This document shows positions 114 to 26,771 of a DNA stretch of 35,189 nt, piece by piece. The translations under genes and the position numbers were made by a program. Below the pieces are notes generated by a model. It was not told the origin of the DNA, did not search any database, and worked only from the letters and a program-made list of their open reading frames with translations. Positions within the stretch are counted from its first letter, which is position 1, and every line of letters starts with the position of its first letter. Origin of the DNA: a virus; the UHGV virus genome UHGV-0070883, one strand, 5' to 3'.

Positions 114-150
114 CTGTACATGGAGCTGTACATGATATAAAAAATGTACA
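114..150 (+). promoter_or_regulatory. Three TGTACA palindromic boxes (114-119, 127-132, 145-150) with TATAAA at 135-140, overlapping the integrase start codon; candidate operator and promoter for int
   Basis: ctgtacatg is directly repeated twice, and a third tgtaca spans the int ATG at 144. Confidence 0.3.
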
Positions 151-1340
151 GCATGGCAGGAATCATCAAGAGAAATAACAAATGGGTTGCCGTCTTCCGA
201 ACCCTGGACGGCAAAGAGATCAGAAAAACAACCCGCGTTGACGTTGTTCCAAAGGTTATTCCTCCCGGCGTCAATAAAAGAGCGTTGCTGTCTCAAAATG
301 AAGCCCGGGCTCGCCTTATTGCTGAAGAACTGGAAAACGGATATAAGACGGGCTTCGTAGACTCGAATCGTCTTAAAGCGATAGCGGGGGGAGATATCCA
401 GTCATTCAGCCTTGGAAGAAAGGTGGTGAGTGTTGGCGCCTATTTGAAGGAATGGCTGCAATCAAGATCGGGTAAGATTCAGGCCTATGAACGGGACCGA
501 AAGGCAATCCAGCAGTTTATTGCCTTTTTAGGAAATGATGGGGGACAATCAATCTCGTCTGTGAACAAAAACGTTGTCAGGGAGTTTTCCGAGGTAGAAA
601 TGGAGCGTGTTTCATCGGGTACAGTATCCAGATACCTTGAATCTCTATCATGTGCTTTTAATCAGGCCGTTGAAAAAGAATTGATTAGCTCAAATCCTTT
701 TAGAGGGGCAAGGCTGGACAAGAAAAAGAAACAGGCTGATAAGCAGGAACGGGGGGCTTTCACTGTAGAAGAAGTCAAAAGGCTTGTAGAGATTTTGCCG
801 GACGAATGGCCGGACATGATAAGGGTTTGTCTTTACACCGGAGGCCAGAGGCTGGGAGATATTGCAACGCTTAAATGGGATCAAGTAAATCTGGAGGGCG
901 GCCTGATCTCCATGACCACCCAGAAAACCAAGCGGCGCATGAACAAGCCCATCATTGGACCTCTGAAAGAGATTTTGAAAGAAAGGGAAAAGTATTCTAT
1001 CAATGAATTCGTATTCCCATTGGCGGCCATGAAACATGCTCAAGCGGGCGGGAAGTCCAGCAAGTTGTCTCTCGAATTTACAGGGCTTTTGAAAAAACAT
1101 GGCATCATTTCCTCGGATGGAATGAAAGCGGAAGGTGATAAGCGTGTTCTATCCGAGAAAAGCTTTCACAGTTTGCGGGCTACAGCAGTAACGATTTTAA
1201 GATTGGCTGGAGTACCTGCGGATTTGTGCCGCTTCATCGTGGGTCATGATTCCGAAGAGATTGAGAGGGTTTATTTCCGCCCTGATTCACAGGATGTGGT
1301 TCACGCCATGGAAGAAATCTCAAGCAAGATTATTTTGTAA
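144..1340 (+). CDS. int: Tyrosine-type site-specific recombinase (phage integrase)
   Basis: 398-aa ORF. The C-terminal catalytic signature HSLR...GHDSEEIERVY matches the tyrosine recombinase H-x-x-R / H / Y motifs, and the N-terminal SAM-like domain is typical of phage integrases. Position next to the tRNA 3' end supports the call. Confidence 0.9.
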   Translation: MYSMAGIIKRNNKWVAVFRTLDGKEIRKTTRVDVVPKVIPPGVNKRALLSQNEARARLIAEELENGYKTGFVDSNRLKAIAGGDIQSFSLGRKVVSVGAYLKEWLQSRSGKIQAYERDRKAIQQFIAFLGNDGGQSISSVNKNVVREFSEVEMERVSSGTVSRYLESLSCAFNQAVEKELISSNPFRGARLDKKKKQADKQERGAFTVEEVKRLVEILPDEWPDMIRVCLYTGGQRLGDIATLKWDQVNLEGGLISMTTQKTKRRMNKPIIGPLKEILKEREKYSINEFVFPLAAMKHAQAGGKSSKLSLEFTGLLKKHGIISSDGMKAEGDKRVLSEKSFHSLRATAVTILRLAGVPADLCRFIVGHDSEEIERVYFRPDSQDVVHAMEEISSKIIL

Positions 1341-1348
1341 TCCCGTCG

Positions 1349-1377
1349 AAAAAAACCGCCCGCGTCTCCAGACGCGG
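1349..1377 (-). terminator. Candidate intrinsic terminator on the - strand (stem cgcgtc/gacgcg with a flanking A-run that becomes a T-run on the - strand)
   Basis: 7-bp GC-rich stem 1360-1366/1371-1377 with loop tcca. The A7 run at 1349-1355 gives U7 after the hairpin for a leftward transcript, for example from the repressor gene. No T-run on the + strand. Confidence 0.3.
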
Positions 1378-1573
1378 ACGGAAAAGAATAAATAGAAAGG
1401 ACGTAGTCAGGAATCTGAATACGTGCCTTTTATATCACATTTTACCCTTTAGGCAATCCTTTTCAGCGTTTCAGGAAACGTCATGACTTGTCATCCGGTG
1501 AACGGGAAATTGATGACAAAACGTCTTACCAGCGTCACAAGACATCAAATCTCATGAAAAACTGGAAATCATA

Positions 1574-1591
1574 CCCCCCCCCCCCCCCCCC
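1574..1591. repeat. Homopolymeric C18 tract (G18 on the other strand) in the int-repressor intergenic region
   Basis: Seen directly: atac + 18 C + ttttgtcgc. It lies just upstream of a putative TTGTCG-16-TAAATA promoter-like element and a small ORF. Confidence 0.9.
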
Positions 1592-1685
1592 TTTTGTCGC
1601 TCTTTTTTTATTAGTAAATATAAATATAACGCTTTAAATATTAGAGCATTAGGAGATAAATTTTCAGCAAGAAAGGGTTACGCCC

Positions 1686-1832
1686 ATGTCAGGTAACGTA
1701 ATGCTTGTGTTTTTCTTGCTGGCCGTTCTGTTCGGGTTCACTTGTTTCCGACTCGGCATTATTGAAGGTTGCCGGAGAACCACGAAAAGGATCTTGGAGA
1801 ATATTTCAAAAGGGATGAAGAAAGGGGAATGA
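1686..1832 (+). CDS. Small hydrophobic protein, 48 aa (MSGNVMLVFFLLAVLFGFTCFRLGIIEGC...), single predicted TM helix
   Basis: ATG-to-TGA ORF below the 60-aa cutoff of the supplied track. It ends 1 nt from the stop of the convergent repressor gene. Confidence 0.25.
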   Translation: MSGNVMLVFFLLAVLFGFTCFRLGIIEGCRRTTKRILENISKGMKKGE

Positions 1833-1833
1833 A

Positions 1834-2244
1834 TCATTCCCCTGCATCTTCCTTCTTATCGTTCTCGCATTCAGATCTTTCTGCTATATATTTATATTGC
1901 TTATCCAGTCCGGTGCAGAGATCTATTACTTTACTTCGGAGATAACTTTCTAAATCTATACCGGGAAAGTTTTTCTGAAACCCTCTGACGATCTCCATTT
2001 CTTCTGGAGAGAAATTCAGGGATGAAAGCAGACTCTCATCACTGGAACATTCTGAAAGCGTAGAAGCTTCAGTAGTGTTTTTCATAAGATTTTGAATCAC
2101 TAAAAGCGCATAAGAGGGAACGCGCCCTCGGGAAGTAAACCAGCCATCAACGGAGACTTTCTCCACTCCGCATTTATCAGCTAGCCAAAATCGGTCTTTT
2201 CCAATTCCTTTAAGCCAGTCTTTGATCTCTTCTTTGGTGGGCAT
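1834..2244 (-). CDS. XRE-family helix-turn-helix transcriptional regulator, probable prophage repressor (CI-like)
   Basis: 136 aa. The N-terminal segment KDRFWLADKCGVEKVSVDGWFTSRGRVPSYALLVI has the helix2-turn-helix3 pattern of XRE/Cro-CI HTH domains. It is transcribed divergently from the early genes, the position expected of a lysogeny repressor. Confidence 0.55.
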   Translation of the reverse strand: MPTKEEIKDWLKGIGKDRFWLADKCGVEKVSVDGWFTSRGRVPSYALLVIQNLMKNTTEASTLSECSSDESLLSSLNFSPEEMEIVRGFQKNFPGIDLESYLRSKVIDLCTGLDKQYKYIAERSECENDKKEDAGE

Positions 2245-8035: not shown

Positions 8036-8183
8036 TATTTTGGAACTTGTAGTTTTTTTGGCAACCCTTGCCGCATATGGCTATTACCTTTATTTGGCGG
8101 GTAAGGTTAAAGGTTTTCTAGATGCTATAAGAGTTTTTATAGAATACAGCGACGATAAATCAAGAAAGGATGATAATAAATGA
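8028..8183 (+). CDS. Small membrane peptide (51 aa; MLDILELVVFLATLAAYGYYLYLAGKVKGF...)
   Basis: Below the track cutoff. Start overlaps the upstream gene by 8 nt. One hydrophobic helix. Confidence 0.3.
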   Translation: MLDILELVVFLATLAAYGYYLYLAGKVKGFLDAIRVFIEYSDDKSRKDDNK

Positions 8184-8300
8184 TAATTATTGATTTATTT
8201 GATATTGTCACGGTTTCAGTTTTGATCGTGTTGGGGATTATTTTAATTATCCAATATATTATATTCAAAATAAAAGGAAAATGAATGCTGAACAGAAAGC
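8150..8300 (+). repeat. Segmental duplication, copy A (micropeptide gene plus 5' end of the Cys4 gene); paralogous to 9215-9363
   Basis: About 85% identity across about 140 bp by eye, including the identical block tcagttttgatc/tcagttttaatc ... atccaatatattatattcaaaataaaag. Confidence 0.7.
8180..8284 (+). CDS. Hydrophobic micropeptide, copy A (34 aa; MIIIDLFDIVTVSVLIVLGIILIIQYIIFKIKGK)
   Basis: ATG overlaps the upstream stop, and its own stop overlaps the ATG of the Cys4 protein. A near-identical paralogue lies at 9239-9343. Confidence 0.4.
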   Translation: MIIIDLFDIVTVSVLIVLGIILIIQYIIFKIKGK

Positions 8301-9022: not shown

Positions 9023-9252
9023 AACTGACGCCTGAACAGAAAACTTTTTACCAACTGAAAAGGGCCAGACGGCGGGTCATACGCCAGAACAGTGGGTTCA
9101 AAAACGCCGTCGGGTACAGTTACCGGGGGAGGGTCTGGTGGATTCCGCGGAAATGTTTAGTCAAAGGTATATTCATGCGTAAGGCCTTTAATTTTTTTTT
9201 AGATAAAATAATAGAACATAAACAGAAAGAGAACGAAGATGATAATTGTTGA
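9019..9252 (+). CDS. Hypothetical basic protein (77 aa); its first 8 codons are identical to the start of the 9340 gene
   Basis: ATGA overlap with the ASCH gene. The 24-mer atgaaactgacgcctgaacagaaa at 9019-9042 is repeated exactly at 9340-9363. Confidence 0.45.
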   Translation: MKLTPEQKTFYQLKRARRRVIRQNSGFKNAVGYSYRGRVWWIPRKCLVKGIFMRKAFNFFLDKIIEHKQKENEDDNC

Positions 9253-9363
9253 TTTATTCGATATTTTAATATTTTCAGTTTTAATCATACTTTCGATTAT
9301 TTATATCATCCAATATATTATATTCAAAATAAAAGAAAAATGAAACTGACGCCTGAACAGAAA
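9215..9363 (+). repeat. Segmental duplication, copy B
   Basis: See copy A. It additionally contains an exact 24-mer, 9340-9363, that is also present at 9019-9042. Confidence 0.7.
9239..9343 (+). CDS. Hydrophobic micropeptide, copy B (34 aa; MIIVDLFDILIFSVLIILSIIYIIQYIIFKIKEK)
   Basis: Paralogue of 8180-8284, with the same translational coupling to a downstream Cys4 protein gene. Confidence 0.4.
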   Translation: MIIVDLFDILIFSVLIILSIIYIIQYIIFKIKEK

Positions 9364-14682: not shown

Positions 14683-14756
14683 CGCAGGGTGGTGAAACGG
14701 TATCACGCGGGGTTCCTGTCCCCGAGTAGGAGGTCCAATTCCTCCCCCTGTAACCA
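14683..14756 (+). tRNA. Phage-encoded tRNA-Arg, anticodon CCU (reads AGG), 74 nt with encoded CCA
   Basis: Manual cloverleaf:
- Acceptor: CGCAGGG/CCCTGTA, with a C1-A72 mismatch and a G2-U71 wobble.
- D arm: U8 and G9, D-stem GTGA/TCAC, D-loop AACGGTA with A14, G18, G19 and A21.
- Anticodon arm: stem CGGGG/CCCCG perfect, loop TTCCTGT with U33 and G37.
- Variable loop: AGTA.
- T arm: T-stem GGAGG/CCTCC perfect, T-loop TCCAATT with T54, C56 and A58 but C55 in place of U.
- 3' end: discriminator A, then CCA. Confidence 0.55.
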
Positions 14757-25359: not shown

Positions 25360-25611
25360 ATGTGCAAACTCTCCGAAGTGCCGGCGCGTTTCATGGATTT
25401 TGCCAAGGCATCACCCGTGTTTGCCTGCGTCATGCTGTCGCTGGTCATTTGCGGCGCGTCCTGCTGGTACATCGGGGATGTCATGGGACACCATAATGAC
25501 CGGCTGTGTGACCTGATGACCATGCAGACACAGGCCCAGATCGAGACGGCCAAGGCGATTCAGCTGCTTGCCGTCAGAATAGAAAATATAGAAAGGAAAC
25601 TGGAAAGGTGA
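25360..25611 (+). CDS. Lysis-associated membrane protein (83 aa): N-terminal TM helix plus C-terminal coiled coil (i-spanin/Rz-like)
   Basis: PVFACVMLSLVICGASCWYIG is a TM segment. QTQAQIETAKAIQLLAVRIENIERKLE has a heptad pattern. Confidence 0.4.
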   Translation: MCKLSEVPARFMDFAKASPVFACVMLSLVICGASCWYIGDVMGHHNDRLCDLMTMQTQAQIETAKAIQLLAVRIENIERKLER

Positions 25612-26771
25612 TTGCTTCTTATCCCAGACGGTTAAGCTCCCCATGCGCTCTTCCGAGAAAAAAACCTGCCAGTTTCGGATTGCCTTATATGGGCTCAAAA
25701 AATAAGATCGCCGCAGATCTGGTGAATATTTTACCAGAAGGGCCGGTATTTGTTGATCTTTTCGCGGGTGGGTGTGCCATGACTCATGCGGCATTATGGT
25801 CGGGGAAGTGGCCCAGGGTCATCGCCAATGATATTCAGCGGCAATTTCCTGATTTATTTTTTCGTGCGGCAACAGGGCGTTTGACAGATTGTGACCGGAG
25901 GGCTGTTGATCGGGATGAGTTCAACCGCGTGAAAGATCATGATGCGGCGGTCGCCCTCTTATGGTCATTTGGAAATCACGGTGAATGTTATTTATGGAAC
26001 GCAGACCTTGAGCCAGTAAAGTTGGCGGCGCTCCGTATGATCATGTCCGAAAACAGAGAGGACCGTCTGGCCTGGTTTAAAAAATTCATTCAGGGCTTAA
26101 GGGATGCACGGGCTGAATTGAAAAGGAGGAAGGAACAAAGGTCTTCTATTTTGGACCAGATTGACAATATTGAAGAATGGCTCAGAGGTGAGCTGCGCGC
26201 TGCGCTGAAAGCGTCTGGGAAAACTCAAGCGGAGGTAAACCGCCATTTGGGGTCTCAAATGGCGGGTCATTATTTTGGATCCAGCCAATGGGCATTCCCC
26301 ACACGGGAAGAGTTTGAAAAGCTGCGTGAGATTTTGCCAACCTTGCACCCCGTTGATTATTACGGTCAACATCTGCAAAGCCTGGAACGCCTGGAAAGAT
26401 TGGAAAGCCTGGAAAGCCTGGAAAGCTTGGAACGTCTGCAAAGATTGGAAAGCCTGGAAAGCGATGTCTATTTGGATAAGAAATTAACAATTAGCGGGAA
26501 AGATTATACTGAAATAACAATTCCGGAAGGTAGTGTGGTTTATGCCGACCCTCCTTATGAGGGGACGGAAAGATATAAGTCCGGACTTTTTAACCATGAT
26601 CGCTTTTGGGAGTGGTGCCGGACGAGAGATTTTCCGGTATTCATTTCAGAATACAAAGCTCCTTCTGATTTCGTTCCCATATGGGAGAAAGCGAAAACGT
26701 GCCACTTTGCGGCAAATAATAACGCAAAAAAAACGATTGAAAAGCTCTTTGTCCATCAACGGTTTAATTAA
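25608..26771 (+). CDS. DNA adenine methyltransferase, D12 class (Dam family), with an internal in-frame LE(S/R) tandem repeat. The start is uncertain: GTG at 25608 or ATG at 25689
   Basis: N-terminal LPYMGSKNKIAADLVNILPEGPVFVDLFAGGCAM matches the Dam/D12 SAM-binding motif. C-terminal VVYADPPY is the catalytic DPPY motif IV. The gene is lower in GC than its neighbours. Confidence 0.8.
   Translation: MIASYPRRLSSPCALPRKKPASFGLPYMGSKNKIAADLVNILPEGPVFVDLFAGGCAMTHAALWSGKWPRVIANDIQRQFPDLFFRAATGRLTDCDRRAVDRDEFNRVKDHDAAVALLWSFGNHGECYLWNADLEPVKLAALRMIMSENREDRLAWFKKFIQGLRDARAELKRRKEQRSSILDQIDNIEEWLRGELRAALKASGKTQAEVNRHLGSQMAGHYFGSSQWAFPTREEFEKLREILPTLHPVDYYGQHLQSLERLERLESLESLESLERLQRLESLESDVYLDKKLTISGKDYTEITIPEGSVVYADPPYEGTERYKSGLFNHDRFWEWCRTRDFPVFISEYKAPSDFVPIWEKAKTCHFAANNNAKKTIEKLFVHQRFN
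26373..26462 (+). repeat. 9-bp tandem repeat x10 (ctgcaaagc, ctggaacgc, ctggaaaga, ttggaaagc ...) encoding (L-E/Q-S/R)10, in frame inside the Dam methyltransferase
   Basis: Seen directly. Ten contiguous 9-mers with 1-2 substitutions each. Confidence 0.9.

Follow-up and report, generated by a model that had tools for sequence, protein, structure and literature searches.

The 35,189-nt viral sequence UHGV-0070883, hereafter the window, is a prophage of Akkermansia muciniphila. Between its integrase gene int and a small open reading frame (ORF) that encodes a 48-aa peptide, it carries an uninterrupted run of 18 cytosines on the plus strand (positions 1574–1591), bounded by an A and a T. The run can be read directly from the sequence. 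It represents one allele of a poly-C tract found at the same place in related phages, and by its sequence evolution the tract is a slippage-prone, fast-changing simple-sequence contingency tract. The reading we favour, to which we give an even chance of being right, is that the tract is a hypermutable element in the upstream control region of the peptide gene, where its length would tune or switch transcription of that gene.

The run is far longer than base composition predicts, which is one mark of a contingency locus. From composition alone, with bases taken as independent and identically distributed, a C run of at least 18 is expected about 1e-6 times; the second-longest C run in the window has 6 bases and the longest G run has 7. 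Related loci were gathered from IMG/VR, GTDB genomes and metagenomes with four queries (a conserved 26-mer 3' of the tract, the integrase, the small peptide and the conserved core upstream of the tract). This gave 107 loci with a total of 626 kb, and the scan of species-representative genomes yielded one true relative only. All 47 relatives whose sequence spans the homologous position have poly-C there, ranging from C5 to C27 with a mode of 12–13; the tract of the Akkermansia phage DTMo-2021a is C12. Interrupted alleles are few (about 5 of about 50, with C7TC6, C8TC6, C4TC11 and CCAC9 among them). Across the 107 loci, 57 of the 58 C or G runs of at least 8 lie at the tract site, and the lone exception lies in an unrelated, spurious match.

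A second mark of contingency loci, repeat variation among close relatives that outpaces substitution, is seen in contig pairs with 0 differences over 320–324 flanking nucleotides. Tract length is unequal in 10 of these 11 pairs, by 1–9 nt, so the tract evolves much faster than base substitution. The indels are confined to the tract: in each of the 47 rows tabulated, 59 nt separate the TAACGC on its 3' side from the start codon of the small ORF. An earlier note on this DNA, made from the letters of the window, had pointed out the C18 run and regarded it as prone to change length by slippage. Direct reading confirms the run at 1574–1591, and both the C5–C27 range and the unequal pairs bear out this view. 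The note had also proposed comparing tract length in related prophages and held that homologues lacking any homopolymer would speak against it; that comparison has now been run, and poly-C in 47 of the 47 spanning relatives disposes of the objection.

The gene downstream of the tract (1686–1832, plus strand) encodes a single-pass membrane peptide with a predicted N-terminal transmembrane helix and a basic C-terminal tail. Of 49 distinct alleles, 47 encode exactly 48 aa, and the variable sites are distributed 17/11/30 over the three codon positions. The third-position bias together with the nearly constant length shows that the small ORF is a real gene, and the small hydrophobic ORF noticed earlier on the 3' side of the tract is thereby established as conserved and coding. 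The non-coding stretch that separates it from int is 345 nt long (1341–1685); the 490 bp first ascribed to this stretch take in the small ORF as well. No family or function was assigned to the peptide by Pfam, PHROGs, PADLOC or an exhaustive HMMER search, and among 1.84 billion proteins it has just one representative cluster. It is possibly a superinfection exclusion protein or a toxin-like membrane peptide.

The small ORF, the tract, the conserved core on the left of the tract and a palindrome on its right (both described below) are always found as a unit whose order and orientation do not change. Their surroundings are not constant. In some relatives (those of the L019 type) int, at 59% identity, is inverted with respect to the module, and the immunity genes beside the module vary between relatives. 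In DTMo-2021a-type relatives the small ORF overlaps (ATGA) a 143-aa ribbon-helix-helix (RHH) gene and is the first gene of a rightward operon that also contains a second RHH gene, to which the operon of L019 adds a KilA/Bro-like antirepressor (L019 1850–3411; DTMo-2021a-type L001 1619–2383). In the window the small ORF stands alone, convergent with a probable Cro/CI-type helix-turn-helix (HTH) gene. Because the module stays constant while the orientation of int and the immunity genes vary, the tract appears to be part of the control region of the small gene and not to pertain to int or to any one immunity system. The module itself is a mobile cassette within mosaic lysogeny regions. For the phase-variable induction or integration that the earlier note raised, the locus offers support neither for nor against.

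On the left of the tract, alignments reveal a conserved non-coding core of about 92 nt (1470–1561), which contains an inverted repeat with 8-bp arms (TTGTCATC-N16-GATGACAA) and a near-invariant CACAAGACATCAAATCTCATGAAAAA. Pairwise diversity in the core is 0.144, and 0.083 in its inner 40 nt, compared with 0.248 at the third codon positions of the small ORF; by this comparison the core is strongly constrained. A 25-aa ORF on the minus strand (1471–1548) was rejected as coding, its variable sites being spread 15/14/15 over the codon positions with no bias. RNAalifold, applied to both strands of the core, returned weak consensus structure only, with one compensatory pair (GUC/GAC to GCC/GGC) and a minus-strand consensus fold of −7.4 kcal/mol. 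A scan of positions 1–2700 against Rfam at a permissive threshold gave a chance microRNA match alone, pairing in trans between a core RNA and the small-ORF mRNA was not significant (z = −0.24), and no copy of the core motif was found in the window besides the one at the tract site. The 12 nt that lie between the core and the tract and touch the latter (1562–1573) are hypervariable, with a diversity of 0.388. On the minus strand they read TAnnA(T/A)TTCCWG, with a −10-like hexamer abutting the G run. Their variability could reflect error-prone repair beside the homopolymer or diversifying selection on the −10-like hexamer.

On the right, an imperfect palindrome of 12–13 bp, GCATT(N2-3)AAYGC, lies directly 3' of the tract in all relatives. 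Elsewhere in these phages no repeated operator of this form was found, the sole site being the one beside the tract. In the most divergent allele, L098, the symmetry of the palindrome is preserved by a double change (GCAAT-TGT-ATTGC), which is consistent with a dimer-binding operator adjoining the tract, like the NadR operators that flank the repeat of nadA. The palindrome is followed by a conserved block of invariant length that reaches to the start of the small ORF (1627–1685, plus strand; diversity 0.124; the 59 nt from TAACGC to ATG in 47 rows). Within this block, our reading of the alignment places a candidate −35 element, TTAAAT, at 1634–1639, a 17-nt spacer, a candidate −10 element, TAAATT, at 1657–1662 (the alignment has TAAATT or AAAAAT) and a good Shine–Dalgarno (SD) sequence, AAGAAAGGG, at 1669–1677, all on the plus strand. 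The tract lies about 45 nt 5' of the best −35 candidate in the window and 13 nt 5' of it in relatives. By Cappable-seq, promoters of A. muciniphila carry −35 and TATAAT-type signals (PMC4782308), which makes a sigma-70-type reading of the locus legitimate. An RNAalifold consensus of 28 relatives further predicts an mRNA hairpin (1673–1706, plus strand) around the start codon of the small ORF and part of the SD sequence. One compensatory and two one-sided variable pairs support this predicted hairpin, which suggests translational control of the peptide.

The greater distance in the window is accompanied by a window-specific insertion of 35 nt (TTTTGTCGCTCTTTTTTTATTAGTAAATATAAATA; 1592–1626, plus strand), which replaces GCATTTG and with it the palindrome's left half. 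In L014, the nearest relative, the integrase is 100% identical and so are the flanks, but the tract is C9, followed by GCATTTGTAACGC without the insertion. A search for the origin of the 35 nt found no other copy in the window, the 107 loci or IMG/VR; they may be a real product of repair or slippage, or an assembly error. With the palindrome half-deleted by this unique insertion, the window allele may be deregulated or off. The insertion also bears on the promoter that had been proposed immediately downstream of the run (TTGTCG-16-TAAATA). The two hexamers lie at 1594–1599 and 1615–1620, and the spacer between them is 15 nt, not 16. Both fall within the insertion, which no relative carries and which IMG/VR lacks; the promoter scan did not report them, and the second hexamer does not end in the T of a −10 box. 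The proposed promoter is thus unsupported and not conserved at the locus.

The geometry of the locus is compatible with the promoter-distal type (nadA, sabA): the constrained core lies on the left of the tract, and on the right the palindrome and a candidate weak −35/−10 pair stand at a fixed distance from the ATG. This arrangement leads us to propose that slipped-strand mispairing at replication would lengthen or shorten the tract, and that each change would shift the distance and the helical phase between the core (1470–1561) and a promoter-proximal block composed of the 12–13-bp palindrome and then the sigma-70-like −35/−10 elements and the SD sequence. The altered spacing would in turn tune or switch the small gene's transcription differently in different cells, as at nadA or sabA. 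The promoter positions are inferred, as is any influence of tract length on expression. We prefer a tract placed upstream of a small-ORF promoter to a tract that serves as the spacer of a leftward promoter.

Several points weigh against this proposal. The candidate −35 element TTAAAT is weak, the rightward promoter is a candidate read from the alignment, and the promoter scan reported nothing at the candidate −35 and −10 hexamers 3' of the tract. The 12 nt on the left of the tract are more diverse (0.388) than synonymous-like sites (0.248). The C5–C27 range shows no obvious phasing constraint and is also compatible with a tolerated spacer. The length variation comes from comparison between contigs, and tract lengths taken from short-read assemblies may err by a base or two.

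One alternative, which we consider rather unlikely, is that a leftward promoter has the minus-strand G run as its spacer, and that slippage switches a non-coding transcript over the core on and off, as with opc and porA. The candidate elements would be a −35 GTTACA/GTTATA in the palindrome, a spacer of AATGC plus Gn and a −10 TAnnAT at the end of the run. In most lineages the hexamer at the G run is TATGAT, TAATAT, TAGGAT or TACAAT, with T1, A2 and A5 retained and positions 3–4 variable. However, the region of the hexamer is hypervariable, and one clade has TAGGAA/TAGAAA (without the T at −7) and no terminator, and its tract is still variable. The modal n of 12–13 gives a spacer of 17–18 nt, and by our count 18 of about 49 alleles have spacers of 16–18 nt, whereas the hexamers match the consensus at about 8 of 12 positions and were never reported by the promoter scan. 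Strong conservation sets in about 6 nt past the hexamer, where the transcription start site is expected. About 200 nt downstream there is a canonical intrinsic terminator for leftward transcripts only (1349–1381, minus strand; found by the terminator scan, with an 11-bp GC-rich stem at 1381–1356 followed by T7). It is kept in many relatives, including some with inverted int or without any leftward gene before it. This terminator nevertheless has a nearer promoter-like sequence, CTGAAA-16/18-TAAAAT, and may therefore belong to another transcript. A leftward transcript would also cover a core that has almost no conserved RNA structure and shows no pairing with the small-ORF mRNA (z = −0.24). A precedent for sensitivity to single bases exists in opc, whose expression differs between 11 and 12 C (PMC3447861). 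This explanation further predicts a 1-nt shift in modal length between the alleles that continue with gcatta and those that continue with gcatttg; the two were compared, and the data are noisy.

We also disfavour, and think improbable, a neutral mutational hotspot, in which the tract would be tolerated spacer DNA regenerated by slippage and its length would have no effect on expression. A range of 5–27 without visible phasing or periodicity fits such a site, as do the extra 35-nt insertion of the window allele, which indicates that large changes are tolerated, and the absence of any promoter from the report of the promoter scan. On the other hand, the tract lies exactly between constrained elements, at the position from which repeats act in sabA and nadA (PMC4081817, PMC2791445). 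Every lineage retains a long and mostly pure run, and apart from the spurious match mentioned above there is no other C or G run of at least 8 in the 626 kb. The divergence of the flanks is beyond the level expected to interrupt a neutral 12-nt run, and yet interruptions occur in only about 5 of about 50 alleles.

An action at the level of RNA is very unlikely. It could take two forms: a poly-C transcribed rightward might load Rho, for which poly-C is the best substrate, or an upstream ORF (uORF) with a poly-proline stretch, starting from the ATG at 1554, might couple or block translation of the small ORF. This ATG and its context are nearly invariant (the ATG is ATA in L073 alone), and one frame of three carries the uORF through the SD sequence and the start-codon hairpin to a TAA 8–10 nt past the AUG of the small ORF, whose start is held by the conserved hairpin. 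Transcripts of A. muciniphila are moreover about 10% leaderless, and many of its genes have no SD sequence (PMC4782308). Against both forms, neither the promoter scan nor a manual check found a sigma-70-like rightward promoter in or upstream of the core, and relatives with inverted int have no rightward gene reading into the tract; the frame of the uORF relative to the tract is not conserved, and some alleles have a 1-nt deletion in an A run.

The notion that an assembler made the tract, or at least set its length at 18 and made the insertion beside it, is scarcely credible. It is true that long C/G homopolymers invite errors, that many public assemblies break at the tract or turn chimeric there, and that the 35-nt insertion is unique to the window. 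But the tract occupies this site in 47 independent assemblies that span it, dozens more break there, the complete phage genome CP084202 carries C12, and a range of 5–27 far exceeds typical homopolymer error.

The breaks are a result in their own right. About 25–30 further public contigs, from metagenomes and viromes, end inside or just past the tract, or turn chimeric there and continue into Nextera adaptor, human Alu-like sequence or low-complexity junk, in keeping with the suspicion raised in the earlier note that the site is difficult to sequence. Contigs with ends or fusions at the tract include L007, L051, L076, L084, L040, L057 and L093, and several contigs of 33–34 kb are entire phage genomes opened at the tract. 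A cos or pac terminus was considered as the cause of these ends and rejected. The break points scatter within and just after the tract, many contigs span it, and the site adjoins int, about 12 kb from the portal/terminase region. The scatter and the distance from the packaging genes indicate that assembly failed at a long or heterogeneous homopolymer, and that these ends are not genome termini. They are also the one indirect hint of possible reversible length switching, at high frequency, within a clonal population. At the tract, short-read assemblies of these 33–34-kb phages are broken or corrupted in a systematic way, a trap for data quality, and a reported tract length is untrustworthy without PCR-free or HiFi reads.

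The closest known systems are nadA, sabA and the fim genes of Bordetella. The promoter of nadA in Neisseria meningitidis has a (TAAA)n repeat, flanking NadR operators and a distal element, and the repeat number alters the spacing (PMC2791445). The present locus likewise has a hypervariable repeat 5' of the candidate −35, a proximal operator-like palindrome on one side and a conserved distal element on the other. It differs in that the nadA repeat is a tetranucleotide, whereas the present repeat is a mononucleotide C run, carried by a temperate phage whose host is a Verrucomicrobial gut commensal, with operator and promoter at the stage of candidates. In sabA of Helicobacter pylori, a T-tract acts as a rheostat that tunes promoter output through the axial alignment of upstream elements (PMC4081817). 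Both tracts are intergenic homopolymers near a −35, here a candidate one, and that of sabA varies widely in length between and within strains. The sabA tract is poly-T, in contrast to a poly-C here that lacks the bending of A/T-tracts and UP-element character, and here a palindrome of 12–13 bp separates the tract from the candidate −35.

The C-stretches in the promoters of Bordetella fim2, fim3 and fimX comprise about 10–22 C and include the interrupted alleles C6TC3 and C9TC8 (PMC1891110). They share with our tract the base, a similar range (5–27 here) and interrupted alleles of the same kind (C7TC6 and C8TC6 here). In N. meningitidis, the poly-C of opc and the poly-G of porA are promoter spacers (PMC3447861, which cites Sarkari 1994); the modal length of 12–13 here equals the length at which opc is on. 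The −10-like hexamer that abuts the run on the minus strand is a further likeness to this group. In fim and opc, however, the promoter elements that enclose the tract are mapped and are those of the regulated gene, an arrangement that here would hold only for a hypothetical leftward promoter of modest quality and not for the small ORF.

Another comparison is with type I toxin–antitoxin loci and small membrane peptides of prophages, such as hok/sok and tisB/istR. Like these, the present locus has a prophage peptide of less than 60 aa with one transmembrane helix and a basic tail, a predicted start-codon hairpin and a candidate small RNA (sRNA) gene nearby. Unlike them, it yielded no match to a known toxin family, and no antisense or complementary RNA was found. 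A type I system was therefore rejected, as the peptide features fit but there is neither significant pairing of RNA from the conserved leftward region with the mRNA (z = −0.24) nor an Rfam match.

Phase variation driven by slippage is a textbook strategy of mucosal pathogens, among them Neisseria, Haemophilus, Bordetella, Helicobacter and Campylobacter. To our knowledge, descriptions of it in gut commensals or in the control regions of temperate phages are scarce. The Akkermansia literature that we searched describes phase variation of the capsule by invertible promoters and, of mononucleotide repeats, only mentions a possible one in cps1 (PMC13343947), and we found no publication on this tract or on any simple-sequence repeat (SSR) switch in an Akkermansia phage. 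The SSR contingency tract is a known type of system, and its host and phage context are new. Tentatively, and with more doubt than belief, we suggest that this widespread phage family has its own contingency locus: slippage at the tract would make expression of the peptide stochastic among lysogens, parts of the lysis–lysogeny circuit would be affected as well where the peptide gene heads the RHH/antirepressor operon, and it would be the phage, not the host, that hedges its bets on superinfection immunity, host cost or induction in the gut. A conserved, hypervariable tract in a common family of Akkermansia phages would offer a directly testable case in which a phage of an important commensal makes gene expression stochastic.

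The order of features at the left end of the window is the end of a tRNA gene, int and the tract region. Prophages of Akkermansia are inducible (PMC8008629, PMC10197239), and the complete phage genome of DTMo-2021a (CP084202) matches the first 5.6 kb of the window at about 96% identity, with 59% of the query aligned; the alignment starts at window position 29. The tRNA gene's 3' end (…GCTCCGCCA), read from the sequence, occupies positions 1–20 on the plus strand and marks the left junction of the prophage (attL side). Between it and int lie two copies of a perfect 22-nt direct repeat (TTTATTGTGGTTTATGTAAAGC; 28–49 and 89–110), which are likely arm-type sites of the integrase, and CTGTACA repeats stand directly ahead of the int start. 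The int gene itself (144–1340, plus strand) encodes a tyrosine integrase (Pfam Phage_integrase, 9.4e-13, with SAM-like domains; PHROG 1 integrase, 2.7e-43). Between int and the core, the minus strand of 1349–1466 carries a candidate gene for an sRNA of about 85 nt (1349–1435), which consists of the promoter-like CTGAAA-16-TAAAAT (1466–1439), a 5' hairpin, a U-rich linker and the strong leftward terminator. Relatives have this unit too, even those in which no leftward gene comes before it. The fold of this unit, with its own promoter-like site and terminator, has z = −6.0.

The gene on the other side of the small ORF (1834–2244, minus strand) encodes a probable Cro/CI-type HTH regulator of 136 aa. 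Its description as a convergent repressor gene holds as far as its orientation is concerned. The label of repressor is plausible and derives from HTH matches of homologues: some of these match PF15943 (YdaS/Cro-like HTH) and PF07022 (phage CI HTH), and the window protein itself has no direct family match. A search of PDB sequences with the 136-aa protein gave no match, and the AlphaFold model of the protein has a confidence score (pLDDT) of 70, with top fold matches that are all XRE/Cro/CI HTH proteins and none of them significant.

The remaining genes of the window include RecT/YqaJ, a Mu-like portal and protease, a collagen-like fibre and a D12 methyltransferase. The ORF of the D12-class adenine methyltransferase (25608–26771) contains about 11 tandem 9-nt units similar to CTGGAAAGC at 26355–26480. 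These are in frame and encode Leu-Glu-Ser/Arg repeats, a second repeat of potentially variable length in this phage. A tRNA-Arg(CCT) gene lies inside the phage at 14683–14756, flanked by a 435-aa ORF and the Mu-like portal gene. Finally, a segment of about 106 nt is duplicated with 83% identity at 8180–8285 and 9239–9344, ORF starts included, which suggests paralogous small genes in the early region.
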